The notes under the pieces are model-generated. The model made no database searches and had not been told where the DNA came from. It worked only from the letters and a program-made list of their open reading frames with translations. A program made the translations under genes and the position numbers. From NCBI GenBank assembly GCA_965655095.1, contig OZ296654.1:87172001-87236000 (forward strand): 64,000 bases of DNA, in the 5' to 3' direction. Positions 36,868 to 58,761 of this stretch are shown piece after piece. This stretch comes from Haplodiscus bocki (taxonomy: Eukaryota). The first letter of the stretch is position 1; each line of letters opens with the position of its first letter.

Positions 36868-37152
36868 TCAATTTCTTTTAATTATATTGCGCTTTTCTTT
36901 AACTAACTGGAAAATTTCATTGCGTATTAATTCGGCTTTAATACATATATCATCGAATCCCTGAGCAATAAACGACATATGTATATTGTCGAGAATACGC
37001 AATACACTCGCTAATTTCTTTGAATCAAGACCTCCAATTTCGTTCACTAATACACCTCTAACACGAATAATTTTTTTATAAACATCTTCCTCCAAATACT
37101 TAACAAAAAACAAATCGTTTATATATAAAATTATATCATTTACAGTCTTCAT
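36868..37152 (-). CDS. Intact 94-aa helical hypothetical protein inside the left TIR
   Basis: TAAATG start, no disruptions, identical to 58070-58354. Confidence 0.7.
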   Translation of the reverse strand: MKTVNDIILYINDLFFVKYLEEDVYKKIIRVRGVLVNEIGGLDSKKLASVLRILDNIHMSFIAQGFDDICIKAELIRNEIFQLVKEKRNIIKRN

Positions 37153-37789
37153 TTATATATAATAAAATTATAAGATTTCTTTTTATTAGATAGAATTCTT
37201 TCATGATATCTCGCATTTCTTTGACCACGTAAATAATATAGTATAATGCGGTTTTGCCACTAACCTCGCTTCGCTCGCCTACTAACAAATCCGACAATTA
37301 TACCCGCTCGCTCATTCGCTGCGCTCACTCACCGGCTCCTTCGCTTTCAGCTCACATCGCCTTTCGCTTATATTGTTGCTCAGCTCTTCGAGCTTCGCCT
37401 TTTTCGACTCGCTTCTACGAAGATCGTGGGATGCTTGACTGACGTCTTGCATAACAGATATACAATCATTTACCTGTGAATTTCCACCAAAGAAAATCAT
37501 GCTCGAACTAAGTATAAATGCATGAAAGTGTGTATAAATAATTCCGGATTGATGTGACCGTAGAATTGAAAAGAAGAATTACACAAAAAAAGACACAAAA
37601 ATTTACACAAAAATTTACACAAACATTCACACAAAAAATTACACTGGAAATTACACAACAGTGTAAAAATTTGTGTAAATTACACCAGAGTGCACACTAC
37701 AGTGTAAAAAATTGTGTAATATGTTTTCACTATGTGAGCTCGATGTGAGATATATCATTCTATAGCCTATTAAAAAATAAATGTACCCT

Positions 37790-38420
37790 GATACTTTCAA
37801 CTTCGTATCTATGATAAACCTCGAGAAAACTGACAAAGTCAGTATTGTCAACATACTTTAAACAGGTAGAGATTATAAAGTTTTAACCTACAAAAAGGAG
37901 TGATTTATCATTGGATAGCCCGTTAAAAGTTTAGTTAACCCTGAAAAACTCGACTTTGTATCTATTATAACCCTCGAGAAAATTGACAGAATCAATATAT
38001 GTCGACATACCTTAAACATGTAGAGATTATAAAATCTTGAGCTACAACAAAGTGTGATATATCATTGGATAGCCCGTTAAAAGTTTAGTTGACCCTGAAA
38101 AATTCAACTTTGTATCTATTATGATCTTCGAGAAAATTGACAAAGTCAGTATTGAATGTCGACATACCTTAAACATGTAGACATTATAAAACATTGAGCT
38201 ACAATCAAGTGTGATACATGTTTGATAGCCCGTTAAAAATTTATTTTACACTGAAAATGTCAACTTTTCTATCTATTATAGTCTTCGACAAAACTGACAA
38301 AGTCAGTATTGTCAACATACTTTAAACATATCGAGATTATAAAATTTTAAGCTACAACAAAGTGTGATATAACTTTCGATAGCTCGTTAAAAGTTTAGTT
38401 TACCATGAAATTTTGAACCC
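37790..38420. repeat. Four tandem subterminal units of about 155 bp
   Basis: GATTATAA anchor at 37871, 38025, 38182 and 38335 (periods 154, 157, 153). Confidence 0.9.
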
Positions 38421-38611
38421 TGTAGCTCTTACCATTTTCAAGAAATTGACAAAAGAGTATTTGTACAAGTATACGTATAATTATACCTATCATTCGTATT
38501 TGACTTCATGTAAGTATACTATATCAACATTGTGGATAAATATAAATATACCACTTACGACATGCAAAATGAAATGGATTTCTTGTAATATTGCAATGTG
38601 TTTGAATGTAT

Positions 38612-38998
38612 TCAGGATTTTGAGCAAGTTTTTTGGAAAAAGTGACGATGCTTTGTTGAAATCCGTAGTTTGAGATTGTGATGTAAATTTATATGAGAAA
38701 GATCACTAAAATTTTTTATTTTTAGTTCATTTATCTGATTAAATAAAAAACCAATTTCTCGAGAAACAGTTAATTTTTTGTTCAATTCATACAAACCCAT
38801 GTTTTTATCAGAAATTGTGATTTCAACTGTTTGATTATTAGTGATAATTGTAAAATTTGTATCTTATTCACATATAAGATCAAAAGTATGAAAATAATTA
38901 TGATGACAATCTCTAATGCAATCATCGATAATTGAATCTAACTTTTGATTAAGCGGGTTATTGAATTCATATTCTTTAACAAAAATATTATCATTCAT
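38612..38998 (-). pseudogene. Disrupted hypothetical Polinton gene
   Basis: TAAATG start at 38998 (MNDNIFVKEYEFNNP...DDCIRDCHHNYFHTFD), continuing into the 38612-38800 frame. Confidence 0.5.
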
Positions 38999-39121
38999 TT
39001 ATTAAAGAGAGATTTTATTGAAATAAAAAACTTTTTTCAAAAATAAATTGAGAAGTTTAAAAATGAAACACTATTCAATGATATTACTCTTGAATCATTT
39101 TCAATACAGATTTCATATAAC

Positions 39122-42100
39122 CTATATTATATAATAAGGGAGCATATGACCAAATTCGTTAGGTGGGTGTCTTTTTAATTCGTTTAAATTAGCTTCGAAT
39201 TGTTTATATCATCGATTTTGTTTTTAAATGTTGTACATAGTTTTCTATCTTTACAACCATTACATCGTCTCATTTTTGTTGGTATTATAAATCCGTTATT
39301 AAATGATTTTGGTAACATAGTTGATAATTATATTACCTTCTAACAGCCTTTTACTATCATTGAAACCTTCAAAAGTCATATGTTGTTGAACAATACCGCA
39401 TTCATGAATAGTTAAAACGTAATCTATTTTAGGAGCTAGAAATAAACCGTAAATGTTACCACCTATTTTGTAATCACTTTTACCCTGGCGTATTTCTTCT
39501 CCTTCTAAATTTGCTTTATCCAATACATCCCAATATTTTTTCTCTATATACAAGCTATCAGTTTCTCCGTAGTATATATTGTTATTATAAAACCCGTTTA
39601 CATCTCTAAAAAAATTCTTCATATTTCGTTTATTATTACTTAAGATAAAAGCTCCTAAAACTTCAGGTAGAGTATTTTTAGTATCAGAATCATCATCTAA
39701 CCTATCGTCTTTTTTCATCTTTACAATATAATTTCCTTTTAGTAGTCTCCAATGAACTAATACATTTTCATCAAAATTTGTTTTCATCCAAAATTCTGAT
39801 TTACAATGATATGATTCGTTAATATCTCTGCGTATTTGGACTCCGTATAAGGTGTTCACATTCAATTTAACTAACCATTGCATTAAATATTTTTTCGTCT
39901 TTATATTTTTGTCTTAAAGCAAACAACCTTTCTGAAACTTTTCTAAATGGTGATATAATAAAGTTTTCACGATAAATAACTCCTTCGTAAATCTTAATCA
40001 CTCTCCCACCAATTTTAAAGATTTCTTGAATATCAACAGATGTTAATGAGCTAGTGATATATTCATTTCGCATTCTGTTAAGTTCTATGTTTTTAACATT
40101 TCCTTTAACTGGTAGTTGTTAAAACATAAGATTAGGTGGATTGTAATATTTTATTCCTAATATAGCAGATTCGTCACCATCTTGGTTAAATATTTGAATA
40201 ATTAATGCTTCTACATAAACATCATTCTTATGTGGTTTAAAGGCAAATCCAGTTTCTATCTTAGGATACACTGAATTTTCATCCCACATAGCAAAAGGAT
40301 ATAAACTATTAGCATCATAATCCATTTGAGTAATATTTAAATCTAATTTAGACAACTCTTTATGAATTGTTAACATGTTAAGTTTTTCGTCAACAAAGTC
40401 AGTTTTTTCTTTTTGATCAATATCTCTATAATCATCAAATTTTGAATCGAATTCTTTTGCATTTTGTTTCTCAAGTTTGTTTAAAATTTCTGAATACTTT
40501 TCTAAAATCTCACAAATGTTACCAATAACGTTTAATTTTTTTGAAACAATTTTAAACACTCAATTTGAACTTTTAGATTTATAGTGTTGATTAAAAGCGT
40601 TACATCTGCCTCCTTTTATGCTTTGTCTTACAAAGTTTCTCATAAAGGGATCAGTAAAAGTATAAATTGGTTCATCGTCTTCATCTCTCAAACTATTGAA
40701 ATATTTATTTGCTAAAGATGGTAAAGTTAAGTTTTCATACCAAAATTAATTATTTCTTCCATACCCATTGTGTATCTAGCATAACAGAAAGCGGTTGATA
40801 ATACGTCGTTCTTAACATAAAGTAACCACTCGTTTTCTTTAGCTTCCCATGTTTCCTCCTAAATTTCATCATGTTCTAATACTTGTTTTAATACCGAAGG
40901 TTGTAGTTTAAAACTTTCTCCTATTTTTTTCAAACCCTTATCAATATGAACTCTCCCACATCTGAAATGTACGTGTTGAGGTGTTTTTTTTTGTTTTGAT
41001 CTACTTAACTGTTGAATACTTTGAGTGAAATAATACCAGCTCCGTTTTTAATTAGTTTAACAACACTTCGCCATTGAGTTAAATTATTTAATAACACATA
41101 ACTATCAAAACCGCTTACGCTGTGAGCTATCAAATATAGATTATTTTCAACAATTTTGTTTTTGACTTTTTTTAGTTCTCCTTTGAACGATAAAACATGA
41201 TCTAACATTTCATTAATACACCCAGTTCCTGTGAAAATAACACAATCATTTAGACATTTTTGATATTCTTGTTCTGATATGTCTCGGTGGTATTTACCAG
41301 AAATTTTACTTAGTTTATATATACAACTACAATAAGGAACAGCTCTGGTTTTATTGAAAGTCTCTAAATCATAAACAACTATATTAGTTAGTAGAGATTG
41401 GACTTTTTGAGGTTTGAATTCATATTTAATAAAACTTTTACCGTGTTTATCAGATACAACATTATCAACAACTTTAAAGCTTGGTTTTATTTCGTCTTCT
41501 ATTACTTGATTAAAACTAATATTATTTGATTTCCAAATTGAACAGAATTGATTATTATATATGAACAATGATGTATTTCTTCGAGTAAAGTTTCGTGGAT
41601 TTATTCTTGTTCCATCAAAACAACCGATGTTGAAATTATATTTCCTACAGAATTGTTGAAATCCAGAAGATGTCATTTCGTTAGACCTTCTTTGTTCAGA
41701 TCGAATAAAAAGTAAAACTTCTTCTGTATAATCTTTTTCAGTAAAATAATTAATACATTTGATAAAACACAATCCAGAAGTTGGTATACAACAGTTTTTT
41801 CTATGGTCTTCAACGATTCTGTGCATTTAATTAGAACCTTTGCCGTAAGCACTTCTTTTAAAAACTTTCAATTGAGGTGTATTTAGTTTATAACTGTAAC
41901 CAGTAAAAGTGACAACTTCAGAATCGTAATCGACATCTTTTGCTTTTATATAACTTTCAAAATCATCCATATTTTTAAATCTGACATTTGTTTCATGTTC
42001 AATAGATCCAATAATCATTAATCCATTTAACTCAAAATCGCCTGTGTAATCTTGTAAAATCTCATTTTTAATTTCATTCAAGTTTAAACTGTTAAAATAT

Positions 42101-42293
42101 ATTTTATTGCTTGTTGCTAATTCGAAAAATCTACCTAAGTCAATATCTTCATCTAATAAATTTTGACTTTTTTGCCTTCTTTCAATTTGTTTTTTTCTCT
42201 ATTTGATTCATTTTGGTTTCTAATTTAAGTTCTTCTTTTATTCAATTCGTATTGTTTTTAAGCAAATCGAGTTTTGTTCGTTACAATGTTCGT
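39122..42293 (-). pseudogene. polB: Protein-primed family B DNA polymerase (pPolB) with N-terminal terminal-protein region, multiply frameshifted
   Basis: Exo I VVYDLETF, Exo II IAHSVSGFDSY, Pol A MDYDANSLYPFAM, Pol B KLNVNTLYG and Pol C YYGETDSLY, spread across fragments 39299-42081. The start is inferred at a degraded TAAACG. Confidence 0.95.
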
Positions 42294-42352
42294 TTATAAG
42301 GAATAAAATTATTGAACTAAAAAAATGTATTCAATAGAACATAATAAATAAA

Positions 42353-42650
42353 ATGGATAATAAAACTTGTACCGTGTGTAATATTGAAAAACATATCAAA
42401 AATTTTTACAAACGCTATTCAGAATGCAAAGAGTGTAATATCAAAGGAGGAGTAAAACGCTACTATGATAAAAAAAAAGATAAAATATCAATTCAACAAC
42501 AATTATGTTACAAAAAAATAGAGATAAACTATTACAAAAATAAATTGATTACAGAAACAAAAGAAACACAGATTAAAAAGACTTAATTAAATCCTATGTT
42601 GAATTGCAAAATAAATGAAAAATATTAGAAGAAAAGGTAAAGAATGATTA
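42353..42650 (+). pseudogene. Small CxxC...CxxC zinc-finger protein with coiled-coil tail
   Basis: CTVCNIEKHIKNFYKRYSECKEC, followed by a frameshifted Lys/Glu-rich tail. Confidence 0.55.
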
Positions 42651-42780
42651 AGTATAATTACACATGCTATTGTATGTAAACACAAAAAAAATTATATGTA
42701 AACACAAATTAAAATACTCATATTTTTGTATGTATACACAATTATAACTACTCATATAAATGTATGTTTACAAAATATAA

Positions 42781-43638
42781 ATGAATCAGAAAAACATTAA
42801 AATTTTTATAAACGATATCTATTCAAAACCACCGAGAAAGAATTATGCTACAAACAAAACAGACGTTTATCATACTGATGACATTTGGAGTTTAGATAAA
42901 TTAGACCTCAAGAATTAAGGTCCTAAAAATAACAGAGGATACAGATATGTTTTAGTTATCATAGACATTTTCTCAACATTTGGTTGGACATTTCCTTTAA
43001 AAAATAAAAGTGCTCAAACAATAAAAGACTATTTCGAAATTATTAATATAAGTTCGAAAAGAAAACCAAAATTAATTGAATTAGGAAGAGGTGAAGAATT
43101 TTATAACAATATTTTTTAAGATAACCTAAAAAAAAATATATCAAAATTTATTCTAGAAATAGCTATATAGTTCTTATGGCGCTGTTTTTGCAGAACGCTT
43201 TAAAAGAACTATAAGAGATCTTCTTAAAAGACCTGTTTTCGAAAAGGTGATGGTATATGGATTGATATATTACCTACAATAACAAAACAAAATAATAATC
43301 GAATACATTCATCGACTAAGTTGACACCGATTCAAGCTAGTTTGAAAAAGAATGAAGGATTCGTTTGCAATATTTTATTAGACAAACGAAAAAGAATAAG
43401 TCCAAAGTTTCAAGTGAACGGTCTCGTTAGAACAGCTGATTTAAAGAAAACGTTTTCAAAAGGAGATACGACTAACTTGTCTTATAAAGTGTATAAAAAT
43501 ACAGAAATTATCAGTGATATAATACCAAGTTGTAAAACCGACAATTTAAAAGAAAGACATAACGAAGCCTTGTTGGAAAAGACAGAGTTAACGATGAAAG
43601 AGGACGATAGTGTTATGAAAAAATTACACATCACCTAA
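42781..43638 (+). pseudogene. int: Retroviral-type (rve, DDE) integrase of the Polinton
   Basis: MNQKNIKIF...DDIWSLD...YRYVLVIIDIFSTFGWTFPLKNK...ELGRGEEFYN (degraded SDRG)...AVFAERFKRTI...HSSTKLTP...FQVNGLVR...FSKG. Contains stops and frameshifts. Confidence 0.92.
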
Positions 43639-44874
43639 ATCAACTTGAAGAGACGTTGACTATCACTGCTTTTACTTATTAATCTGTTCGTTAACACTAA
43701 AGCATATCCATATATACCAGCAGGAACAACTCCCTCAAATTTGAACTCTACTTTAATTGGTTGAGCTGATTCAAAATTTTTCTGATATTTATATCGAAAA
43801 CGTTTAAATTATAACCAATATTATTACCATCATTGAATGATCTAAAATCGTGATCACTTATATATGGTTTAAAAATATCATCTTTTGTAAGAGCTCTAAA
43901 AACTTCTTTAATTTGACTATATCCCTAACTATAATCATCATCGTTATAAATTAACAACATAGCTGAATCAGGATATTTTTCGGTCCCTATAATTCATTGA
44001 GCGAATATTACAGGAGGTCTATAAAAAGAATCGTTGTTTAAATTTTGATCCTGTTGCCGATCATTTTGTTGGAAACCTACAATAATCCATATAGGAACGT
44101 TTATTCCTTCTTGAGTGCCTAATTCAAAGTCCATAAATTTTGAGTTTTTATCTCTTTCATGAAAACAGACCTTTCCACATATCTAGGCTCTGTAGGTTTT
44201 TTATCTACAATCTGACCCATCATTATTTTTTCCTGGGCAAGCGATGGTGTATAATGGGGAACGTACCAATCAAGACTGTTAATTTTAATTTTAGCATTGT
44301 TGGTTGCGTTAGCTTTGTTCAAAACAGCGTTATCACTGTTTCGTGTTAATGTCAGCTTGTAGCCGAGACCATAAGTTTCTTTTTCTTGGTGTTGGGCAAA
44401 ACCAAAATATCTTGCAACATAATTGTCACATGATATTTACCTTTTGTTATTAGTCAACTCTCTTTTTCTCCTCTCACGATCACGATCAAATCTAATAGAC
44501 ATATTGTCAGTATTTCTGGCACTTGCTATAAGTTTATACATTAAACAAGCTATTTTTGCATGGTTTATTTCTTCGATATGTTTCCCACTGCTTGTCTATA
44601 GCTTATTATTACTGAATAAAGCAATTGGACCTTCATTCACTATTCGTATATCATCACCGTCTATATAACTGTTATTCGTAGCAGCATGTAATACATCAAA
44701 GTTTATTCTCAGGAGACTACCTAACAAACTCTTAACAGAACCTCCTCTAGGAATAATATTTTATATTTGAGAATTAGCTGTAATTATTGTGCTTATTTCT
44801 GACAGCGAATACCTAATAAAATCACATTTTGAAATATTTTTATTTATTTCATACTTTTCATTCAGTTTAAACAT
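43635..44874 (-). pseudogene. Major capsid protein (double jelly-roll, PY/hexon-like)
   Basis: Manual translation gives FGFAQHQEKETYGLGYKLTLTRNSDNA, KIKINSLDWYVPHYTP, PIWIIVGFQQ, IGTEKYP and C-terminal GIYGYALVL. About 410 codons. Converges on the integrase stop. Confidence 0.82.
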
Positions 44875-44941
44875 TTAAGATGTGAGAAGACTGGAGTAAT
44901 TATAGTTATTCATGTAACGGGTTACATTTAATTAAAATTTG

Positions 44942-45750
44942 CTATGGTTGTTTCTTATATAAACATTTGTATTCTGAAAACTTATCAACTATAGCAACAA
45001 TTTCTTCATCAATTGTTTTAGAAGTAATACCAGCGTGTTTTTCTTGAAGTAACAATTTCAATCTATCACACAGTTCGTTGGGATCAGATGGTAAAAATCT
45101 TCTTTTACAAATCCCACAAGCAGAAACCAGTAAACCTGTTGATTTAAGTAATTTTATAAGAGTTCTATCACGAGTAGATTTATTACTCTGAGCTTTTGTA
45201 TCAAAATTCTTTCGCAAAACCATACGTTAATTTCTTATCCTGCAAGCTAGCAAGATCAACGTTACAGGTTTTGTTGGTTATCATTTTTAAAGGATCTCTT
45301 TGTAGCTCCAATTTTTTAACTGTATCACGAATAGTTATCAATTTGTTATACAAAGTAAGTGGTATTGAGTTGTGTATTAACAAGTCATTAACTCTATTTG
45401 AAGTAGTATCTTTTAATAGTTTGAATTGACTAGTATTTTCAGGATTTGTTATTGTAGATAGAGGAGACATCAAATAAGATGCTAATATACCTTTATCATT
45501 CATGATTTCAAAAAGTTTGTTGTTTAAGTTTTCTAGTGCTTTGTTGTTGTTACTGGAATTTTCAGTCATAGTTTTTGTTATATCTTGTGAGGCATTTTCA
45601 GGTGATATGGTAACTGGTTCAAAAACTTTTTTCATAACTTCATCAAAAATTTTGTTTTCCTAGTTTACCTTGTAATCTTACTGCTTTTACCTGATTTTGT
45701 AATGAAGCCAGCTCTTCTAATTCTTTTAAGTCTTTAATTGGAAAAACCAC
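44942..45750 (-). pseudogene. Conserved Polinton accessory protein with a C-terminal DPNELxDRL motif
   Basis: FLPSDPNELCDRLKLLLQEKHAG...EEIVAIVDK in 44942-45223. N-terminal coiled-coil fragments at 45201-45750. Confidence 0.7.
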
Positions 45751-45845
45751 TTAAAAGACTTGAAAACACAGTCTTGTTTTGTTTCTGAAACAGATATGAA
45801 TGCTATATCTTCCTTGATATTTAAAATGTTTGTTTATGGTTTTGT

Positions 45846-46659
45846 TCATATACTTTGAAAAGGTTCAGTTTCACAAATACATTCAATATATGTGTTTTTA
45901 CTTTCATTGAGAAAACGATATTTGCCTTCATTTTTATTTTAAGTCATATCAATACATAGGTAGTTAAATTTTTCACTCCATGCAACCCGACACACTTTCT
46001 TAAATTCATCATATATCATATCAAAAGCTCCGATATTATAACACATACTTTGAACACCCCTGAGTGTTTGTTTAATCTAAATATTCTATCACTGTTATTT
46101 CTAATGCTTTGTCTCGGTAAACCGAAATAGCTTTGACTAAAAGAATAAACGTCTAAATCTTCATGTCTTCCTCTAGTAAAAAATTCATCTCTTTGAGAAC
46201 TGTTTCGAGTTCCTAGTATACCGTCAAAAAATAAAACTGATCCCTTGTAATTGTTTATTGGTTTAATTTCATTGCTTGTTTTATTATTTGGATATTGATT
46301 GGGAGATCGAGTTATTATATGAAGCTGTTTTTGGTTACCTATTTTTTAAGTATTTTGAGCATGTAATAAGTTTTGCCTACGTTGCTTGGGCCAATAAAGA
46401 GGTGACGATGATTTTCATATGTTGAAACAATAACGTTGTTGTCTTTGTTATTATTAAAGTTTTCAATAATTGGTAAGAATATTTGGTAAAAATGTTTAGT
46501 AAAAATTTTTGGTAAGAACTAAAAATTTTATTTGGGGGTAAAGTGTTATTTTTGTTATTTCTTTTATTTTTATTAAAACAGGTCTTACAAACAGTTCTAT
46601 CTTTCTTATATTTATTTTTTATCTCTCATTATGTCATATGCACTACAATTTCGATTCAT
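45846..46659 (-). pseudogene. A32/FtsK-like DNA packaging ATPase
   Basis: Walker A IGPSNVGKT (about 46370-46395), degraded Walker B VLFFDG, FTRGRH, and SQSYFGLPRQSIRNN. Confidence 0.9.
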
Positions 46660-46839
46660 TTAATAAACAGAACAGTTCACATTAAGCAGAACAGTTCACA
46701 TTATCATTGAACAGAACAGTTAATAACTAGTTAAAACAGAACAGAACAGTTAACATTAAACATAAACATTTTTAAGTTCTAGGTTGAAATTTTAATTTAT
46801 TATTACTGAAAAAGATTAATTTTATTTTTATATTCAAGT

Positions 46840-47371
46840 TTATGGACAAGATTCGTTTTTGTTTTCATCAACTTTTTCAGTAAATTTGTTACAAAGACTT
46901 TCGTTTTCACATTTATCAATTAAATTATCTTGTAAAATTTTTCTCTATAATTTATCGAAAGATTTAATAGTTTGTTGGTCATTTTCATGTTGGTTTTTTA
47001 ATAATTGTGTTTACTTATAATTATCTCATATAATACTTTATTAGCACTTTATTTTCCATATGCTGTTGCAATTGAAACTGGTTTCACTATCAAATTAATT
47101 CCCGTAAGACTTAACGTAATACAACTCGACGTTGTGGCAATAATACCAAATATATCGAATGATTTTAATAGTGTAGTTATTGTTTTATATCTTTTATATT
47201 TCTTTTTGGATTTATTATTTTTGTCTTTAAAGTAAGTTATCATTTCTTTAATGTTGTTGATGTGGTTATCAAAACTATCAACATCATTTAATTTTTTTCC
47301 ACTCTTTCTTCAAGATCAATATTTTTTTCTAATGGTGCAGATGGGTATAATCTATCTGTTTTTTGGTCCAT
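46840..47371 (-). pseudogene. Putative membrane-associated protein with hydrophobic hairpin (adintovirus 'GasderminX'-like layout)
   Basis: MDQKTDRLYPSAPL, a coiled coil, KKKYKRYK, a hydrophobic segment (FDIFGIIATTSSCITLSLTGINLIV) and C-terminal LQDNLID. The family assignment is tentative. Confidence 0.55.
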
Positions 47372-47386
47372 TTATCATATAAAAAC

Positions 47387-47786
47387 TTAAACAAAAATTC
47401 CAAGATAAAAGCTTTTGCCTGTGTGATAGAAATTAATTACTTCAGGTAATGTTGATAGTGATGCTTTTGGATTTCTACTTGCAGCTGCGGTAGCTATATT
47501 GGAACCGATTTCAAGAAATCTAGCTGGATTTTTGAGTGCATCAGTTGCCAAATTTTTAACAGCTTTAGCAGGAATGATTCCCAAACTTTTGAAAAAACTA
47601 CCCAGACCTTCTGCTTTTATTGTGTTATCTCTAACGGTCATAGATTTTTTTTCTTTTACAAATTGAACAATAACCGATTAGTACTTTACTACCTTTACTT
47701 GTTTTACTAACATAAATGTTTTTTGTAGCAGCTATGTGTCTACGACCAACACAATAACTATTCGATCTAAAAATAGTGAAGGTCAT
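47387..47786 (-). pseudogene. Putative membrane-lytic core protein (adenovirus pVI / 'cupiennin'-like) with Cys-containing N-terminus
   Basis: YCVG...YCSICKRKKS, then IKAEG|LGSFFKSLGIIPAKAVKNLA as an amphipathic helix. One frameshift. Confidence 0.55.
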
Positions 47787-47821
47787 TTATTATATAAACA
47801 ATTGTATGTACACATGTTAGT

Positions 47822-48928
47822 TCAGAATTTAATCATTTGTAATGTAAAAGTCAACGTTTCTCCGTTAAAATTAACTTCCTCGTTATTATCATCTTCTAAA
47901 TAAAAAGTTATAGTTTTCAAAACAGATTTATTGATTTTTTTAAAGCGTATTGTTTCAGGTTCACAGGAGACTTTGTATCCGGACAGTTTGTCTAAAACAA
48001 AACTAAAGAGAATTGGTTAATTGGTTGTCTTAAACCGTTTCTTACAGAGCCATCAATAACATCACATTTGAAGTGTATTTTATTAGTGCTATTTAGATTT
48101 ACAATTTTTTGGCTAGTGTATTCAATATAGTGTTTATAATCCCAACCTGGAGTAAAACCGAGAACAGTACTGAAAAATGATTTTTCATCAAGTCTTATGG
48201 CTATAATACCAAGTCTTACAACTAATTCAGTTTTTTTGTTAATGTCATTTAATTCAATATCAATTGTATCAATTGCATTGAAATTTCCTTCATATTCAGG
48301 TTGAAAAAGCTTGAAAGAAACTCAAACATCTTTAAACGTGTATATACCGGGTGGAATTTCATCAGTGATAAAACTTGATTTGGATTCATCTAAAACCAAT
48401 TTAATATCATTTTCAACCAGATCAGATTCTGTTCTGAGAAACTTTCAAAATCTTGAAATATAGAACTAGTATAACCAGATAAAATAAACATACATTTGTC
48501 ATCTTTCATTCTTTTTTTTACTTATTCTCTATATTTTTTAATAATAATTGGAGTTATTATATCATCTTCTAAATCGGTAGCTGAAATATCTGAAATTCCC
48601 AAGTCTTTTTCAATCTCATCTCTGAATTTTGTGTATGAAACGCCACCAATGTTTTCAACAGGAAATTTATAAACTTCGAAATTGCTATTTTCTTCTGTTA
48701 TGTTGAAAATCGAATTGTACATTTCAAAATCTGTTAATCCAATCATCCAAGATCCTTCAATCGAGTTAGATTGATTAAAATGAAAAGTTTCTTTCGATTT
48801 GTGAAGCTTGAATTCGAGTGTTTCTTGTGGTTTAGTATGAGTCTGTTTAATAAGTGTTTCACAACTTTAGTTATTGAAAGTAGTAAATCTTCTTTTTCAT
48901 TTTTAGGTTGAATCATATTTAGGTTCAT
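47822..48928 (-). pseudogene. Minor capsid protein (penton) paralogue 1
   Basis: WMIGLTDFEMYNSIFNITEENSNF, IPPGIY, VLGF, IHFKCDVIDGS, FSFVLD and ITFYLEDDNNEEVNFNGETLTFTL. Confidence 0.8.
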
Positions 48929-49024
48929 TTACACTCGCATAATTGTAAAATACACATATAATTTTACGTATACCTTGTATAAATAATAAGACATTTTCTT
49001 ATACTTGTATGTATATAAATACAA

Positions 49025-50098
49025 TTAATAAATTTTAATGAGTTGTTAAGTAAAACTTATCGTTTCTCCAATATATTCAACATGTTTGTAATCATCGTCC
49101 TCAAAGTGGAAATTGATATGAGACAGCACTGATTAATTTTTTGTCTTTTTAAAAAGTTTTACTTTTGGTTCTTTAAATATTTTATGACCGGGAGGCGAAG
49201 ACAAAGCAAAACTGTACAAAAGTGGTTCTCTGCAACAGTTCACTATGCTTCCTTGAATGCAATCTGCTTTAAGGTGCACTTTATCAATCCCTGTAATGTT
49301 GATTGGTCTATCACTTTTATACGATCCTGAAATCAATTGATAAAATCCATCTATATCATCTAGAGGATAAAACGTGATCGAGTAAAACCTAAAATTGTTT
49401 TAGCAAAATATTCTTTAGTGAATATTAAAGTTTGATTGATTTTTAATTTGGAATTTAATCTAACATCATCAATAGTAATACTTAATTTCAAATTATCGGG
49501 TAAAATAAACTTTAAGGTGTTGTTTAAATCAACCACTTCATAAATACCTGGGTTTATGGAATAGCCTATTCATTTTGCAGGAATATATTTTAAATATAGA
49601 ATATCTATAAACTCATCGTATATTAGTTGCATTCTGTAAACTAAATCTTCAAGATCATTGTATTTTGGGTTTTTTAATTCTTCAAGTATCTCGTTTTTTT
49701 TAAAATCAAAGTCTGATATTTTATATTCATTGTCTCCTAATTTTATTTTACTACCTCTTTCTCTAACTTCTTTCACAAGTAATTCAAAAGACCTAAGCTT
49801 TAATAAATTTTTTAGTTCGTCAAAAGTTTGTTCAGCAGATTTTATACTCCCAATGGCCTGGTATAGTGATTGAAAAACTATTGTTTTCATCAGTTATAAT
49901 AAAAACAAAATTTGTACACTCAAACGAACTCACTGCGAGAAGCCATTTTCCCTCTTCAAATAAAATTATTGGAGGATTAAACGAAAACGTTTGCATTTGC
50001 ATATTCATTTTATATTCAAGCGTTTCTTGTGGTTTTGTTTTTGTTTGCTCATTCAGCGTATCTTTATGCTTTTTAATTAAAAGTAACAATTTAATCTT
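49025..50098 (-). pseudogene. Minor capsid protein (penton) paralogue 2
   Basis: WLLAVSSFECTNFVFIITDENNSF, INPGIYEV, ILGF, VHLKADCIQGSIVN, LYSFALSSPPGHKI and FEDDDYKHVEYIGETISFT. Confidence 0.8.
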
Positions 50099-50283
50099 TT
50101 AGGGATGCCAAATCCACTTGCTGCTACATTTTTAAGGAACTTTTTATTGTTTGTGAATTATTCTTGTTTTGTTTACGAGGAAGTGAACCAGTTTTTTTTT
50201 GGTTTAATCTCTTTTTCTTTTGTTTGTTCACTTTTTGGAACAATTCTAACACTGTTATCAATTGTTAATTTTCTCCACACCAT
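50099..50283 (-). pseudogene. Small basic putative core protein
   Basis: TAAATG start, Lys-rich, ends NVAASG|FGIP (adenain-site-like). Internal stops. Confidence 0.3.
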
Positions 50284-50701
50284 TTAAAAATAACAAATAC
50301 TTTGGTAATACAAATTCAAAACAGCAGACTTAAAATCTATTCCTAAAACTTTTGTCAAGTAAATTAAATATAAACAATAACTCGAACAAAAACTTTCTTT
50401 TTTTGTGTTTGATGTTCTGAATAAAAGCAAAAACCATTTCGTTTTATAATAAATTTGGATAGTTTCTTTGGACAGACACATCCATAACTATCAAAATATT
50501 TCCATTTATATAGCAAACCCAATAAGTACCTTTCGAAGGATGTAAATTTACAATACCAAAATCAGATTTAAATGGACTGTCTCTTAAATAGGTTCCAACA
50601 TCATCCAAAGATAAAGATAAAAGGACTTGTTGAATTTTTATATTTGATGTTGCTTTAATTTTTAAATTGTTTTTATGAACAAAATCTTTGAACGTCATCA
50701 T
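50284..50701 (-). pseudogene. Adenain-like cysteine maturation protease
   Basis: GIVNLHPSKGTYWVCY (catalytic His mutated to Tyr), FDSYG after a frameshift, and Q...ESFCSSYCLY (catalytic Cys). Confidence 0.85.
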
Positions 50702-51126
50702 TTACTTCCTCTAAATCTCCTCTACGCCTTGCTGTAAATAGAAAATCTTCTAAAATTTTATCAGCATTTTCAAACTTATCAAAAAGACCCTTATCATTAA
50801 GTTATTGTATCGTCGTTTTCACAGCTCTTTGAATTATAATTTCTTCTACATTTTGTTTGTTGTATTGTAATTTAAACTCATTGCAACTTTTTTCAATGTA
50901 AGAGATATGTCCATCTATCTTTTTTATTTTCTCGTCTAAGTAAGCTTTGTTTATAACATCTTTCTCATCAACAGCTTCAAAGTTTGTTGTTATTTTTTCA
51001 TTTTTTATAAGTACCGTGTACTTAGAGTTTTAATTGATTATTATTTAAAACTTGTATTTTATCTCTTTTAGAAACGATATCATCGAATTCTGATTCCCAC
51101 AATTTTTTATGAGATTTATAAGCCAT
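50673..51126 (-). pseudogene. Coiled-coil, possibly fibre-like protein
   Basis: Contains DVINKAYLD, similar to the DAxNKxYVD stalk motif. Internal stops. Confidence 0.4.
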
Positions 51127-51472
51127 TTATAACTGTTTATTCATCTGTTTTTTCATCCTAGACATAACTAAATTGGGTCTTTTTTCGTCATCGTTTTGTT
51201 TTAATAATTTTAATTTAGATTCTTCAAACCATTTTTCATTGTGAGAGCCTACTTTATTTTTGAAAGTTTCGTTTTCTGTGTGTAATTCTAAAATATCATC
51301 CATCATCACCCATTAAATTAAAAGCTTTCTTGATAGCAGGCATCATAGAAACTAATCGTTCAACTTTTTTGGCTTGTGTTGTTAAAGATTGATTGTTAAA
51401 ATCTTTTAAATCTTGTATAGTATCACTTCTGACCGTTTTATCATTAGAATTTATTTGCATAGCCAAATCCAG
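51127..51472 (-). pseudogene. Disrupted hypothetical helical protein
   Basis: Degraded TAACTG start at 51472; C-terminal fragment at 51127-51309. Confidence 0.4.
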
Positions 51473-51669
51473 TTAAAAACACATATAATAGTATAATATC
51501 AATTATTCAAATACGAATAGTATTATAAATAATACTATCATCGTAGTTGTATAAAAGTTTGAATATAAAGTTATAATTACACATATAAGAGTTCATATAA
51601 CATTATTATCTAAATTTTCATCTGATGTTTGATCGTTAATTTCAACATTATCGTGAACAAAACCACCTT

Positions 51670-52060
51670 TCAAATTGTTTTTGTTTCTACTTTCTTACCG
51701 TTTTCATGTGAAGTCGATTGAGGTCGTTTGAGGTCATTTGATGTCATTTCAGCCCTTTTAACGCCAGGGTCCTGATGTGAATTGTTGTCAAAATTAGTAT
51801 CTGAAGGTTTTTTTGTTCTTTTATTGGTATTATTTGGGTGAAATCTGTACGGTAAAAGCATATTTATATCGTTACTGAATCTTTGTAAAGTACTAGTTGA
51901 GTAACTTAGTTGATTTGCTATTTCTGATTGTTTCATTTTAGGATTTTCATATTTAAACCGCATGAAATCAGCCATTAATTTTAGTTTATATTGACGAGAT
52001 ATCAAATTGGAATCAAGATTACTTGTTCTAGAGATTTGTTGTAAAGAGGAACTGTCATTA
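51670..52060 (-). pseudogene. Helix-turn-helix DNA-binding protein
   Basis: ENPKMKQSEIANQLSYSTSTLQRF is a classic HTH signature. The start is unclear. Confidence 0.7.
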
Positions 52061-52242
52061 ATTTTAAATTTTGAAATAAGAGAAAAAATAAAAATAAAAA
52101 CATAATTATAGCATTTAAAAATAAAATTATTTTAAAATATTTATTTTGTTTCTTTGTGTTATCAACAAAGTTGACGTATTCTTCAAGTAAATATGTTTTA
52201 ATGTTCTTTTTATATGTATAATAAATAAAGAATATTTTAATA

Positions 52243-53025
52243 ATGCAACATAATTATCGAAATAAATATTTAGTTGTAATGGATGGTGACGTGTATGTTT
52301 ATAATTATGAAAAAAGTAAATTTGACTAAACTTTCCTCTCTTTTCAAGAAAAAAATGTCGTTTTTTGGTAAATCAAAAGTTTGTGAAATGACAGAAATTT
52401 CTGGGGCTGTCGATAAAAGTTCTAATTTTGATGGTAATAAATTTTTGCTTCAATGTGAAAAGAATGAATATGTTTATATTTCCGGACTCGAGATTTTTCA
52501 ATTCAAGACGGATGATAAAATTATAGATTACATATTTTTATTGGCAACAATATGGTTCCTTATGTTAAAACACTAGGAGAAAAATATACATATTTCTTAT
52601 ACAATCGTTATAAATATATTCAAAATGGTAAAATTGAAGAAGGAAATTCGTTAAAGGTAACAAACAATAGCTTAGATCCGTATGATTATCATGTTGAAAT
52701 ATGTGGTATTGATGCTTTTAAAAAGTTAGCAAATGAGTTGATTCATACTTGTTGGCCAGGTCATCGAGATGGGGATGGAGAAGTGGAAGACGATTCGGAT
52801 GTTGAAGATGAATTTGAAGAGAACGAAGATTTGATTGAAATCAAATTTCATAAGGGGACCAACGAAATGGTTGAAAAATTTAGTCAAAAGTGTGTTATTC
52901 GTTCAGAAAGAGATAGAGATAGTGTTTATGCATTTAGACAATGCGGTCATCAATGTATTTGTGAGCAATGTTATCAAAAAAATGGTGATACTGATATGTT
53001 AAAATGTGTTGTCTGTAGAATATAA
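52243..53025 (+). pseudogene. RING-finger (C3HC4-type) protein, copy 1, frameshifted twice
   Basis: C-terminal CVI(R)...CGHQCICEQC...CVVCR with an acidic linker. The N-terminal domain is reconstructed across frames 1-2-1. Confidence 0.8.
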
Positions 53026-53041
53026 TAAAAAAGAGAAAAAA

Positions 53042-53227
53042 CTATTTTAAAAATTTTTTTAGATTCTTTTTTGATATTTTTAGAGGAGTTTTAGGTAATG
53101 ATTTTCTGGATAATTCAAATTTTATTTTTCCGTTTAAGGTATCATCTTCAAATTGTGAGACTTGTTTTTCATCGCCTTGTTTTTCTAAGTAACTATCACC
53201 TAAAGAAACGTTTTTAACTTTTTCCAT
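53042..53227 (-). CDS. Small basic hypothetical protein, 61 aa (copies at 54873-55058 and 56551-56733)
   Basis: TAAATG start in all three copies. Convergent with the RING gene. Copy 3 has an in-frame one-codon deletion. Confidence 0.45.
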   Translation of the reverse strand: MEKVKNVSLGDSYLEKQGDEKQVSQFEDDTLNGKIKFELSRKSLPKTPLKISKKNLKKFLK

Positions 53228-54073
53228 TTATAAGAAAGACTTCAATTGAAAAGATTTTTTTAAATTCAATTATACCTTGTTAAAAAAAGAGGTTTTTTTC
53301 TCAGTCAAAAAAAATTTGAGTAGTCTATCAAATATTAATATATTATATTATTTACAACTTTGAATACCGATGTGTGATAGATTATTTTTTAAATTAATGT
53401 TACAGAATAAAGAATGTATTCAAGCACATTGCAGTAATAGAAGAAATCCATTTCATTTTGCATGTCGTAAATGGTATTTATATAATAATCCACAATGTTG
53501 ATAAAGTATACTTACACGAATTCAAATACGAATTGTAGGTATAATTATTCGTATACTTGTACAAATACTACTTTGTCAATTTCTCGAAAATGATAAGAGC
53601 TACAGGGTTCAAAATCTCATGGTAACCTAAACTTTCAACGAGCTATCCAAGGATTTATCACACTTTGGTGTAGCTTAAAATTTTATAATCTCTACATGTT
53701 TAAAGCAAGTTGACAATACTGACTTTGTCAAATTTCTCGAAGATCATAATAGGTACAATGTTGAATTTTTCAGGGTCAACTAATTTTTTAACGGGCTATC
53801 CAATGACATATCACACTTTGCTGTAGCTCAAAATTTTGTAATCTGTACATGTTTGAGGTATGTTGACAAATACTGATTTTGTCAATTTTCTCGAACATTA
53901 AAACAGATACGAGGTTGAAGCAAAAATAAAAACATAAATAAAGCATTTGAAGATAAAATTATTTCAAAATATTTATTTTGTTTCTTTGTGTTATCAACAA
54001 AATGACGTGTTCTTCAAGTAAATATGTTTTAATGTTCATTTTATATGTATAATAAGTAATGGATATTTTCATA

Positions 54074-54856
54074 ATTCAAAATAATTATCGAAATATATAT
54101 TTAGTTGTAATGGATGGTGACGTGTATGTTTATAATTATGAAAAAAGTAAATTTGACCAAACTTTCCTCTCTTTTCAAGAGGAAAATGTTCTTTTTTGGT
54201 AAATCAAAAGTTTGTGAAAAGACAGAAATTTCTGGGGCTGCCGATAATAGTTCTAATTTTGATGGTAATAAACTTTTGCTTCAATGTGAAAAGAATGAAT
54301 ATGTTTATATTTCCGGACTCGAGTTTTTTCAATTCAAGACGGATGATAAAATTATAGATTACATATTTTTATTGGCAACAATATGGTTCCTTATGCTAAA
54401 ACACTAGGAGAAAAATATACATATTTCTTATACAATCGTTATAAATATAATCAAATTGATAAAATTGAAGAAGGAAATTCGTTAAAGGTGACAAACAAAA
54501 GCTTAGATCCGTATGATTATCATGTTGAAATATGTGGTACTGATGCTTTTAAAAAGTTAGCAAATGAGTTGATTCATACTTGTTGGCCAGGTCATCGAGA
54601 TGGGGATGGAGAAGTGGAAGGCGATTCGCATGTTGAAGATGAATTTGAAGAGAACGAAGATTTGATTGAAATCAAATTTCATAAGGGGACCAACGAAATG
54701 GTTAAAAAATTTAGTCAAATGTGTGTTATTCGTTCAGAAAGAGATAGAGATAGTGTTTATGCATTTAGACAATGCGGTCATCAATGTATTTGTGAGAAAT
54801 GTTATGAAAAAAATGGTGATACTGATATGTTAAAATGTGTTGTCTGTAGAATATAA
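54074..54856 (+). pseudogene. RING-finger protein, copy 2
   Basis: Same as copy 1; the C-terminal 157-aa ORF differs at 12 positions. Confidence 0.8.
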
Positions 54857-55751
54857 TAAAAAAGAGAAAAAACTATTTTAAAACTTTTTTTAGATTCTTT
54901 TTTGATAATTTTAGAGGAGTTTTAGGTAATGATTTTCTGCATAATTCAAATTTTATTTTTCCGTTTAAAGTATCATCTTCAAATTGTGAGACTTGTTTTT
55001 CTTCACCTTGTTTTTCTAAATAACTATCACCTAAAGAAACGTTTTTAACTTTTTCCATTTATAAGAAAGACTTCAATTGAAAAGATTTTTTTAAATTCAA
55101 TTATACTTGTTAAAAAAAGAGGTTTTTTTCTCAGTCAAAAAAAATTTGAGTAGTCTATCAAATAATAATATATTATATTATTTACAACTTTGAATACCGA
55201 TGTGTGATAGATTATTTTTTAAATTAATGTTACAGAATAAAGAATGTATTCAAGCACATTGCAGTAATAGAAGAAATCCTCTTCATTTTGCATGTCGTAA
55301 ATGGTATTTATGTAATAATCCACAATGTTGATAAAGTATACTTACACGAATTCAAATACGAATTGTAGGTATAATTATTCGTATACTTGTACAAATACTA
55401 CTTTGTCAATTTCTCGAAAATGATAAGAGCTACAGGGTTCAAAATCTCATGGTAACCTAAACTTTCAACGAGCTATCCAAGGATTTATCACACTTTGGTG
55501 TAGCTTAAAATTTTATAATCTCTACATGTTTGAGGTATGTTGACAAATACTGATTTTGTCAATTTTCTCGAAGATTAAAACAGATACGAGGTTGAAATAA
55601 AAATAAAAACATAATTATAGCATTTAAGAATAAAATTATTTTAAAATATATTTTTTGTTTCTTTGTGTTATTAACAAAGTTGACGTATTCTTCAAGTAAT
55701 TTTGTTTTAATGTTCATTTTATATGTATAATAAGTAATGGATATTTTCATA

Positions 55752-56534
55752 ATGCTATATAATTATCGAAATAAATATTTAGTTGTAATGGATGGTGACG
55801 TGTATGTTTATAATTATGAAAAAAGTAAATTTGACCAAACTTTCCTCTCTTTTCAAGAGGAAAATGTTCTTTTTTGGTAAATCAAAAGTTTGTGAAATGA
55901 CAGAAATTTCTGGGGCTGCCGATAATAGTTCTAATTTTGATGGTAATAAACTTTTGCTTCAATGTGAAAAGAATGAATATGTTTATATTTCCGGACTCGA
56001 GTTTTTTCAATTCAAGACGGATGATAAAATTATAGATTACATATTTTTATTGGCAACAATATGGTTCCTTATGCTAAAACACTAGGAGAAAAATATACAT
56101 ATTTCTTATACAATCGTTATAAATATAATCAAATTGATAAAATTGAAGAAGGAAATTCGTTAAAGGTGACAAACAAAAGCTTAGATCCGTATGATTATCA
56201 TGTTGAAACATGTGGTAATGATGCTTTTAAAAAAATAGCAAATGAGTTGATTCGTACTTGTTGGCCAGGTCATCGAGATGGGGATGGAGAAGTGGAAGAC
56301 GATTCGGATGTTGAAGATGAAGTTGAAGAGAACGAAGGTTTGGTTGAAATCAAATTTCATAAGGGGACCAACGAAATGGTTAAAATGTTTAGTCAAAAGT
56401 GTGTTATTCGTTCAGAAAGAGATAGAGATAGTGTTTATGCATTTAGACAATGCGGTCATCAATGTATTTGTGAGAAATGTTATGAAAAAAATGGTGATAC
56501 TGATATGTTAAAATGTGTTGTCTGTAGAATATAA
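55752..56534 (+). pseudogene. RING-finger protein, copy 3
   Basis: Same layout and same lesions as copies 1 and 2. Confidence 0.8.
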
Positions 56535-56919
56535 TAAAAAAGAGAAAAAACTATTTTAAAACTTTTTTTAGATTCTTTTTTGATAATTTTACAGGATTTT
56601 TAGGTAATGATTTTCTGGATAATTCAATTTTTTTCCCGTTTAAAGTATCATCTTCAAAATGTGCGACTTGTTTTTCATCACCTTGTTTTTCTAAATAACT
56701 ATCACCTAAAGAAATGTTTTTATCTTTTTCCATTTATAAGAAAGACCTTAATTGAAAAGATTTTTTTAAATTCAATTATACCTTGTTAAAGTAAGAGGTT
56801 TTTTTCTTAGTCAAATAAAAATTTATAGTAGTCTATCAAATAATAATATATTATATTATTTACAACTTTGAATACCGATGTGTGATAGATGAATTTTTAA
56901 ATTAATGTTACAGAATAAA

Positions 56920-58761
56920 GAATGTATTCAAGCACATTGCAATAATAGAAGAAATCCATTTCATTTTGCATGTCGTAAAGGGTATTTATATAATAATCCA
57001 CAATGTTGATAAAGTATACTTACACGAATTCAAATATGAATAGTAGGTATAATTATTCGTAAACTTGTACAAATACTACTTTGTCAATTTCTCGAAAATG
57101 ATAAGAGCTCCAGGGTTCAAAATTTCATGGTAACCTAAACTTTCAACGAGCTGTCCAAGGATATATCACACTTTGGTGTAGCCTAAAATTTTATAATCTC
57201 TACATGTTTAAACTATGTTGACAATAATGACTTTGTCAAATTTCTCGAAGATCTTAATAGATACAAATTTGAGTTTTTCAGGGTAAACTAAACTTTTAAC
57301 GGGCTATCCACTGATATATCTCTCTTTTTTGTAGGTTAAACTTTTATAATCTCTACTTATTCAAAGTATGTTGACAATACTGACTTTGTCAGTTTTCTCG
57401 AGGTTTATCATAGATACGAAGTTGAAATTTTCAGGATACATTTATATTTTAATAGGCTATAGAATGATATATCTCACATCGAGCTCACATAGTGAAAACA
57501 TATTACACAAATTTTTACACTGTAGTGTGCACTCTTGTGTAATTTACACAAATTTTTACACCGTTGAGTAATTTTTAGTGTAATTTTTTGTGTAAATGTT
57601 TGTGTATATTTTTGTGTAAATTTTTTTGAAATTTTTTGTGTAATTTAACTTTTCGATTCTACGGTCACTTAAATCCGGAATTATTTATACACACTTTCAT
57701 GCGTTTATACTTAGTTCGAGCATGATTTTCATTGGTGGAAATTCACAGATAAATGATTGTACATCTGTTATGCGAGACATTAGTCGAGCATCCCACGATC
57801 TTCGTAAAAGCGAGTCGAAAAAGGCGGAGCTCGAAGACCTGAACAACAATATAAGCGAAAGGCGATGTGAGCTGAAAGCGAAGGAGCCGGTGAGTGAGCG
57901 CAGCGAATGAGCGAGCGGGTATAATTGTCGGATTTGTTAGTAGGCGAGCGAAGCGAGGTTAGTGGCAAAACCGCATTATACTATATTATTTACGTGGTCA
58001 AAGAAATGCGAGATATCATGAAAGAATTCTATCTAATAAAAAGAAATCTTATAATTTTATTATATATAAATGAAGACTGTAAATGATATAATTTTATATA
58101 TAAACGATTTGTTTTTTGTTAAGTATTTGGAGGAAGATGTTTATAAAAAAATTATTCGTGTTAGAGGTGTATTAGTGAACGAAATTGGAGGTCTTGATTC
58201 AAAGAAATTAGCGAGTGTATTGCGTATTCTCGACAATATACATATGTCGTTTATTGCTCAGGGATTCGATGATATATGTATTAAAGCCGAATTAATACGC
58301 AATGAAATTTTCCAGTTAGTTAAAGAAAAGCGCAATATAATTAAAAGAAATTGATTACATCATCTAGATTATATTTGTATTTTCTGATAAGAATATCTTT
58401 TGGAAATCCATTAGTTTTATGACCGTCTATTCTACAAAGAAATATAAAACGATAAAACCTTTCATTAAAGTCAGAAACGAGCTTGATAGAGCTTCGAAAA
58501 GGCGAGCAATAAACTAATATTGTCGCGAATGATATTCAATTATGCGAGACGGAAGCGAGCATCCCACGAGATTCGTAGAAGCGAGTCGAAAAAGGCGAAG
58601 CTCGAAGAGCTGAGCAACAATATAAGCGAGAGGCCATGTGAGCTGAAAGCGAACGAGCCGGTGAGTGAGCGCAGCGAATGAGCGAGCGGGTATAATTGTC
58701 GGATTTGCTAGTAGGCGAGCGAAGCGAGGTTAGTGGCAAATCCGCAATATACTATATTATT
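56920..58761 (-). repeat. Right terminal inverted repeat (about 1.84 kb)
   Basis: Ends GGTTAGTGGCAAATCCGCAATATACTATATTATT. Contains two terminal-motif copies and two units of about 155 bp. Confidence 0.93.
58070..58354 (+). CDS. Intact 94-aa helical hypothetical protein inside the right TIR
   Basis: Identical to 36868-37152; TAAATG start. Confidence 0.7.
   Translation: MKTVNDIILYINDLFFVKYLEEDVYKKIIRVRGVLVNEIGGLDSKKLASVLRILDNIHMSFIAQGFDDICIKAELIRNEIFQLVKEKRNIIKRN

Follow-up and report, generated by a model that had tools for sequence, protein, structure and literature searches.

Gene starts of Maverick/Polinton elements in the Haplodiscus bocki genome carry a two-class signal resembling poxvirus late and intermediate promoters

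Introduction

It is still an open question by what means animal Mavericks/Polintons come to be transcribed and for what reason no virions of theirs are observed; a 2026 framework likewise records no sighting of a Maverick/Polinton virion (10.64898/2026.06.19.733378). A 64,000-nt stretch of the Haplodiscus bocki genome (contig OZ296654.1, positions 87,172,001 to 87,236,000; hereafter the window, in whose own numbering coordinates are given) raises this question in concrete form: it holds one decayed 22.3-kb Maverick/Polinton (36500..58761; family A) whose genes nearly all begin with the hexanucleotide TAAATG. A sequence-only reading of the window had equated this hexanucleotide with the poxvirus late initiator and had proposed that the element was transcribed by a co-infecting pox-like virus or other nucleocytoplasmic large DNA virus (NCLDV). 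Here, we report that the TAAATG start signal is real and strong, beyond the extent first described, and that it appears to belong to two promoter classes with vaccinia-like features. Judging by this likeness, the element is probably a virophage-like parasite whose genes are read by a pox-type RNA polymerase that a co-infecting large DNA virus supplies.

Results

The element and its natural copies

The ends of the element were set by the terminal 14-mer of intact copies, which lies at position 36500 and, reverse-complemented, ends at position 58761; between these ends, GC content is 26–30%, against 34–43% in the flanks. The two arms pair as terminal inverted repeats (TIRs; 36500..38000 on the left and 57224..58761 on the right), with a repeat pair of 1369 nt that is 96% complementary. 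The Maverick/Polinton characters found are a size within 15–25 kb together with TIRs, a 6-bp target-site duplication (TSD), and four hallmark genes with Pfam matches over cut-off, namely PF03175 (pPolB), PF00665 (rve integrase), PF04665 (A32-like packaging ATPase), and PF21738 (double jelly-roll major capsid protein, MCP). The TSD is 6 bp long in 11 of 14 copies and 8 bp in one, and is lacking in two, the window copy included. The MCP falls near Polinton-type clusters in a protein atlas, where the accessory protein f27 has no usable match. The element is not classed in Lavidaviridae; it would be virophage-like by lifestyle, and its MCP matches PF21738. The labels penton and cysteine protease used below are presumptive, being given on motif and position: neither the putative pentons nor the protease gave a Pfam, PHROG, or PDB match of penton or adenain-like protease kind.

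Genome size (1.5 Gb), a tandem histone array, and the type of histone sequence point to an animal as the probable host, and this genome carries a massive load of such elements. A pPolB query returned 10,817 first-look candidates, a figure that is not a copy number; many of the 141 candidates scored have open frames of more than 1,000 aa, and candidate element loci number in the thousands, many of them intact. For the counts below, we took 27 natural family A copies, chosen for an open pPolB, the last of which is partial; intact copies measure 17.6–19.6 kb (n = 13) and have TIRs. Within many copies, the TIRs are 97–99% identical, yet MCP identity between copies has a median of 79%, with 8 of 105 pairs at 97% or above, and dN/dS values of 0.12–0.18 indicate purifying selection on virion genes. 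Because the TIRs are near-identical, the copies mutually divergent though young, and dN/dS low, we infer that the element has integrated again and again out of a diverse pool in which virions are selected for.

TAAATG at gene starts

Across 19 gene families in these copies, TAAATG stands at the start of 381 of 407 full-length open reading frames (ORFs). The count is partly circular owing to the choice of families, which were picked by judgement from 30 multi-copy ORF clusters, the other 11 of which looked antisense or repeat-derived; the copies are also related, so that the independent unit is the gene family and not the ORF. The hallmark genes were named without reference to the motif, and their starts are TAAATG in 20/20 integrases, 22/22 MCPs, 22/22 ATPases, 22/22 proteases, 48/49 pentons, and 16/27 pPolB genes, the remaining pPolB ORFs being read as broken upstream, so that an internal Met serves as their start. 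TAAATG is also found at the start of many unrelated accessory genes: of 74 other ORFs of at least 90 aa inside family A copies, 30 have it; by reading, the other 44 are mostly antisense to core genes, repeat-derived, or fragments.

The background frequency of TAAATG among all ATGs is 47 of 762 in the window element (6.2%), 969 of 16,769 in the natural copies (5.8%, true starts included), and 23 of 1,089 in the host flank (2.1%). The enrichment over host genes expected from the sequence-only reading is borne out, with TAAATG at none of 26 host or other ORF starts against 381 of 407 in the element; recognisable host housekeeping genes have a purine at −3 in 10 of 12 starts. Internally, TAAATG is depleted on both strands relative to synonymous shuffles (208 vs 319 and 132 vs 247), ranking 5th among 401 hexamers.

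An initiator separate from stop codon and ATG

A TAA directly before ATG invites a translational explanation, in which TAA-ATG would be a place where translation stops and restarts (termination-reinitiation) on read-through mRNAs, or would give the start codon A-rich surroundings. The TAA is in frame with the ATG, 89% of element starts have a purine at +4, and true stop-start junctions do occur, all of which would suit this view. The junctions account, however, for few starts: among the 381, TAA is the upstream gene's stop in 16 (a single gene pair supplying 12), there is an overlap in 24, and TAA stands after a spacer or at a divergent start in 341, in keeping with the earlier count of three abutting stops in the window and a majority of starts after spacers. 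Over 54 clustered families with 611 starts, TAA precedes ATG in 575, TGA in 1, and TAG in none; on these two sets of counts, an abutting stop codon was rejected as the source of TAA.

The initiator is also present at divergent promoters that have no upstream gene, and frame-shifted variants keep TAAAT. All 58 families retained for carrying TAAA have TAAAT, as TAAATG in 54 and TAAATA in 4. In pPolB genes of the type found in a second family (family B, described below), the usual arrangement is core, spacer, and TAAAT 10–12 nt upstream of the ATG, giving a short leader, and other genes have TAAAT-ATG; the uncoupling of TAAAT from ATG in pPolB argues for a transcription signal over a translation signal. 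Fixed features at 10 and 13–21 nt upstream have, in addition, helical-turn spacing. A translational origin of the signal is thus very improbable.

Two promoter classes

In vaccinia, the nucleotide 10 positions upstream of TAAAT is a conserved T amid weaker T's in late promoters, and intermediate promoters have an AT-rich stretch 15–19 nt upstream (PMC11980589). The core of the G8R intermediate promoter is placed 12 bp from TAAA (PMC12917281). Both arrangements recur here. T is at its maximum at exactly position 10 upstream of TAAAT (0.77; 31/46 families without a core), with lineage values of 0.72, 0.84, and 0.83, the third lineage peaking at position 11. At registers 0 and +1, 12 of 55 families reach a score of at least 6.5/9 with a 9-letter G8R probe, compared with 0–2 families at registers −15..−2 and +3..+9; the observed value of 12.8, against 4.3 in shuffles, was reached in 0 of 2000. 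Both pPolB types fall in the core class (7.8 and 7.4), and for eight virion genes from families A and B the scores are 3.5–6.2.

In place of the single late class first proposed, two classes therefore appear: a late-like class, with TAAAT(G) overlapping the start codon and T at 10 upstream, and an intermediate-like class, with an AT-rich core, a 12-bp spacer, and TAAA, in 12 of 55 families. The promoter reading itself is well supported, as stops are excluded, the host lacks the signal, two further vaccinia features are in register, and TAAAT is separable from ATG. Because asfarvirus-type late promoters (TATATA) and those of Cafeteria roenbergensis virus (CroV; TCTA) differ (PMC11788076, PMC5294985), we read the match as one to poxviruses among the characterised viruses compared.

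Several points weigh against so specific a likeness. The intermediate core of vaccinia is reported to be without a consensus (PMC12917281). The G8R probe was chosen post hoc, after AATAA had been noticed at −20; registers +10 and +11 also give 4–5 families on the G8R core; homologous promoters are counted among the 12 high-scoring families, of which about 8 are independent; and the sets of 55 and 58 families were kept for carrying TAAA (55/97 clusters). Capsid promoters of the third lineage score 5–7 on the core, which blurs the split between classes. TAAAATG is found at 2 of the 12 host housekeeping starts, and TTAATG is as depleted internally as TAAATG.

Downstream of the genes, no common polyadenylation word was found after stops, AATAAA within 80 nt being universal only for gene f12. 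On the sense strand there are fewer occurrences of T5NT, the terminator of pox early genes (189 vs ~315), a depletion not used as evidence, A-runs being reduced too and the copies related.

Could host RNA polymerase II or III read these promoters in the nucleus, with TAAAT as an element-specific initiator and perhaps an element-encoded factor? The pox likeness would then reflect ancestry shared by Polintons and NCLDVs, or convergence. The elements are indeed nuclear at very high copy number, family A encodes a helix-turn-helix protein (f22), and weak searches of the genome found no helper. Yet family B yielded no match to f22, and Pol II geometry does not fit, as transcription from a TATA-like word at −3 or −20 would begin inside the ORF; on this geometry, a TATA-box reading was dropped. 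Nor did an element-encoded TBP or TFIIB show up in the two models made, those of f2 (pLDDT 70) and f27 (pLDDT 54.5), which gave no match so named among the top 50 folds of a viral fold library. Given that it is vaccinia in particular that the T 10 nt upstream and the 12-nt spacer match, transcription by a host polymerase seems unlikely to account for the signal.

The signal in a second family and a metagenome lineage

A second Polinton family in the genome, family B (5 copies), was reached by following an intein. Its capsid is 24–27% identical to that of family A, its pPolB type and gene order differ, and its genes, nearly all on one strand, have the same signal. A third lineage, on 9 metagenome contigs, has a different gene order again, with capsids 42–48% identical (39–49% in local alignments, 42% for two full-length sequences); one metagenome contig carries a close relative (89%). 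Genes with intact 5' ends on the metagenome contigs start at TAAATG. With two outside capsids as queries, no divergent third family was found in the genome.

The family B intein is complete, contains LAGLIDADG, and lies in frame in motif C of pPolB (ORFs of 1562 and 1739 aa); it has 114 matches in the genome. Inteins would not ordinarily be expected in the nuclear DNA of animals, and a literature search yielded no report of such an intein in animal Polintons. Four of the 27 family A copies carry this intein as a separate, free-standing gene of 362 aa (for example L010:4917-6002, minus strand), with a few extein residues on each side and under a copy of the intermediate-like promoter (core score 9/9). 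This gene could represent a domesticated homing endonuclease able to target rival family-B polymerases. In addition, a chimeric copy (L150-L152) combines a family A body with a family-B-type, intein-bearing pPolB, and therefore points to swapping of replication modules between the two families.

A probable helper virus as the source of transcription

As first proposed, the element encodes no RNA polymerase: apart from pPolB, no Polinton gene family in families A and B exceeds ~450 aa, and no RNA polymerase domain was found. That a co-infecting virus supplies the enzyme is a step that we infer, no NCLDV marker having been found in the genome by searches of weak sensitivity, whereas the promoter part of the original proposal now has the two-class vaccinia features behind it. 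The helper need not be a poxvirus.

Under this scheme, naked element DNA would meet the helper's post-replicative machinery. Intermediate-like promoters would fire first, yielding pPolB and a few non-structural proteins, and late-like promoters would drive capsid, pentons, ATPase, protease, and integrase. Initiation inside AAA with slippage, which has been shown for vaccinia and yeast virus-like elements (PMC6211774), would add a 5' poly(A) leader that supplies the missing 5' UTR and replaces the T at −3 by A. Virions would then spread the element, the integrase inserting a germ-line copy with a 6-bp target duplication.

The search for a helper itself cuts the other way. Searches of the genome for VLTF3, an NCLDV capsid, and the pox intermediate factor gave nothing, although they were weak, and those for PolB and Rpb2 matched only host or Polinton genes, the Rpb2 search finding two of three expected host genes. 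A purely cytoplasmic cycle fits poorly with nuclear insertions in the thousands, and the code, compared here across families A and B and the metagenome lineage, may be general to animal Polintons and helper-independent. The nearest predicted folds to f27 are uncharacterised proteins of marseille-, mimi-, klosneu-, and iridoviruses (pLDDT 54.5; E 1e-3 to 4e-2); this modelled resemblance is a weak sign of NCLDV contact and would indicate Megaviricetes rather than poxviruses.

The massive genomic load and the missing helper trace would also suit a lineage that descends from a helper-dependent virus and keeps its old promoters as a vestige, its present spread being intragenomic and host-driven. 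The signal is kept, however, at dS 0.5–0.8 while neighbouring spacer columns vary, and it is found on many variable accessory genes and avoided internally, which speaks for current or recent selection. We regard a mere vestige as quite improbable and favour dependence on a helper virus.

Two further proteins may be mentioned here. The f27/f24 family (L002:8675-9217; f24) includes the low-confidence f27 model nearest to NCLDV folds, and a small membrane protein, f23 (L026:9732-9905, minus strand), has a sub-threshold match to the poxvirus entry protein I2/L1 (22.3 bits vs a cut-off of 23.4).

Comparison with known systems

The DNA polymerase gene of vaccinia is an early gene, whereas that of the element is in the intermediate-like class. 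Common to the element and vaccinia are a TAAAT(G) that overlaps the start codon, a T 10 nt upstream in one class and, in the other, an AT-rich core set off by a 12-bp spacer (PMC11980589, PMC12917281, PMC5294985); unlike in vaccinia, these promoters lie in an 18–22-kb integrating element without an RNA polymerase, and the core looks more sequence-specific. Yeast pGKL virus-like elements have a similar initiator, TAAAN, which gives 5' poly(A) leaders by slippage, but have an RNA polymerase and a capping enzyme of their own (PMC6211774).

Promoter sharing with giant viruses is established in protists for virophages as well as polinton-like viruses (PLVs; 10.1101/2022.07.28.501842, PMC10328495). 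Like the virophage partners in the mavirus/CroV, Sputnik/mimivirus, and Gezel-14T/PgV pairs, the element is integrating, capsid-encoding, and polymerase-less, with what would be the helper's motif at gene starts. Those pairs have protist hosts, Imitervirales helpers, and other motifs (TCTA, AAAATTGA), whereas here a Maverick/Polinton, in what is probably an animal, bears a pox-type code of two classes. For PLVs associated with entomopoxviruses (Barth et al. 2024, PMC11296320), hyperparasitism on a poxvirus within an animal has also been proposed; they were found in occlusion bodies, the words "promoter", "motif", and "TAAAT" are absent from the main text, a term search of main text and supplement showed no promoter analysis (PMC11296320), and they are placed as ungrouped outliers in the recent framework (10.64898/2026.06.19.733378). 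In its TIRs, 6-bp TSD, pPolB, rve integrase, ATPase, and double jelly-roll capsid, the element agrees with Mavericks/Polintons (adintoviruses), class Polintoviricetes (PMC8502044, 10.64898/2026.06.19.733378), for which the available portions of the literature mention no promoter code or helper dependence (PMC8502044, PMC10748475, 10.64898/2026.06.19.733378); in the available part of PMC11464507, "promoter" matches only primers. Literature on Polinton, Maverick, and adintovirus promoters contained no report of TAAATG or a pox-type code in a search that largely left out subscription journals.

The two-class code predicts that a large DNA virus is needed for expression, as for protist virophages. 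More broadly, a wide clade of animal Mavericks/Polintons could be endogenous virophages of an undiscovered pox-type virus with an intermediate-then-late cascade, an extension that we put forward tentatively. Such a clade would span two pPolB types and capsids only ~25% identical; its elements would stay silent until a helper infects, which could explain the unseen Maverick virions, and may act as an inherited antiviral defence in the animal. The code offers a simple sequence test for every animal Polinton and predicts a pox-type virus of the host group, and the finding bears on the debate between virophage-first and nuclear-escape origins (PMC10328495).

Genes of the window element and further observations

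Starts in the window were checked by mapping those of intact natural copies onto it. All 15 exact sites listed earlier do read TAAATG, and 10 of them are orthologous gene starts (38998, 42781, 44874, 46659, 47371, 47786, 48928, 50283, 50701, and 51126). The TIR ORF at 37152/58070 (one query matched) and a 61-aa ORF (none) have exact sites without being confirmed as gene families. The four one-mismatch relics, at 42293, 45750, 50098, and 51472, hold up on mapping, and further decayed starts absent from the earlier list lie at ~42353, 52060, 52209, and 52214.

From the left, the 94-aa TIR ORF (start region 37150..37182, minus strand) has T at 10 upstream and a mirror copy at 58070 on the plus strand. 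Gene f2 has an intermediate-like promoter (38996..39028, minus), with a G8R-like core scoring 8/9, a 12-nt spacer, and TAAATG; AATAA is at −20 in 15 of 16 copies. The pPolB pseudogene (39030..42293, minus; PF03175), with its one-mismatch mapped start, has an intermediate-like promoter in intact copies, and the spacer that separates it from a divergent zinc-finger gene (42294..42352) contains one core per strand. The rve integrase pseudogene (42781..43639, plus; PF00665) has an exact TAAATG with T at 10 upstream. The double jelly-roll MCP pseudogene (43630..44874, minus; PF21738) also has an exact start, under a late-like, T-rich promoter (T share 0.82 at −16..−9).

Next on the minus strand come f10 (44920..45750; ~283 aa), whose one-mismatch start was placed by orthologue mapping; the A32-like packaging ATPase pseudogene (45900..46659; PF04665; exact); f12 and f14 (46840..47786; exact starts at 47371 and 47786); two paralogous putative penton pseudogenes (47826..50098), starting at 48928 (exact) and 50098 (one mismatch); and a cluster at 50085..51472, in which f17 (50283), the putative cysteine protease (50701), and f20 (51126) have exact starts and f21 (51472) has one mismatch. 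Beyond these, a relic of an f27-RING gene (RING PF13920) and the 61-aa ORF form three tandem copies (52086..57324; 1.83 and 1.68 kb), the 61-aa ORF copies starting with exact TAAATG at 53227, 55058, and 56733; this triplication adjoins 153-bp subterminal repeats.

The element terminus is repeated again 730–770 bp inward (36500-37450 and 57800-58761). The same terminal regions contain GCTC-rich repeats reminiscent of rolling-circle or adeno-associated virus (AAV) Rep-binding sites. Elsewhere in the genome, very long open frames contain several of the host's housekeeping genes, and a very large host tandem histone array with a 4.6-kb unit occupies C4 15.58-16.31 Mb.

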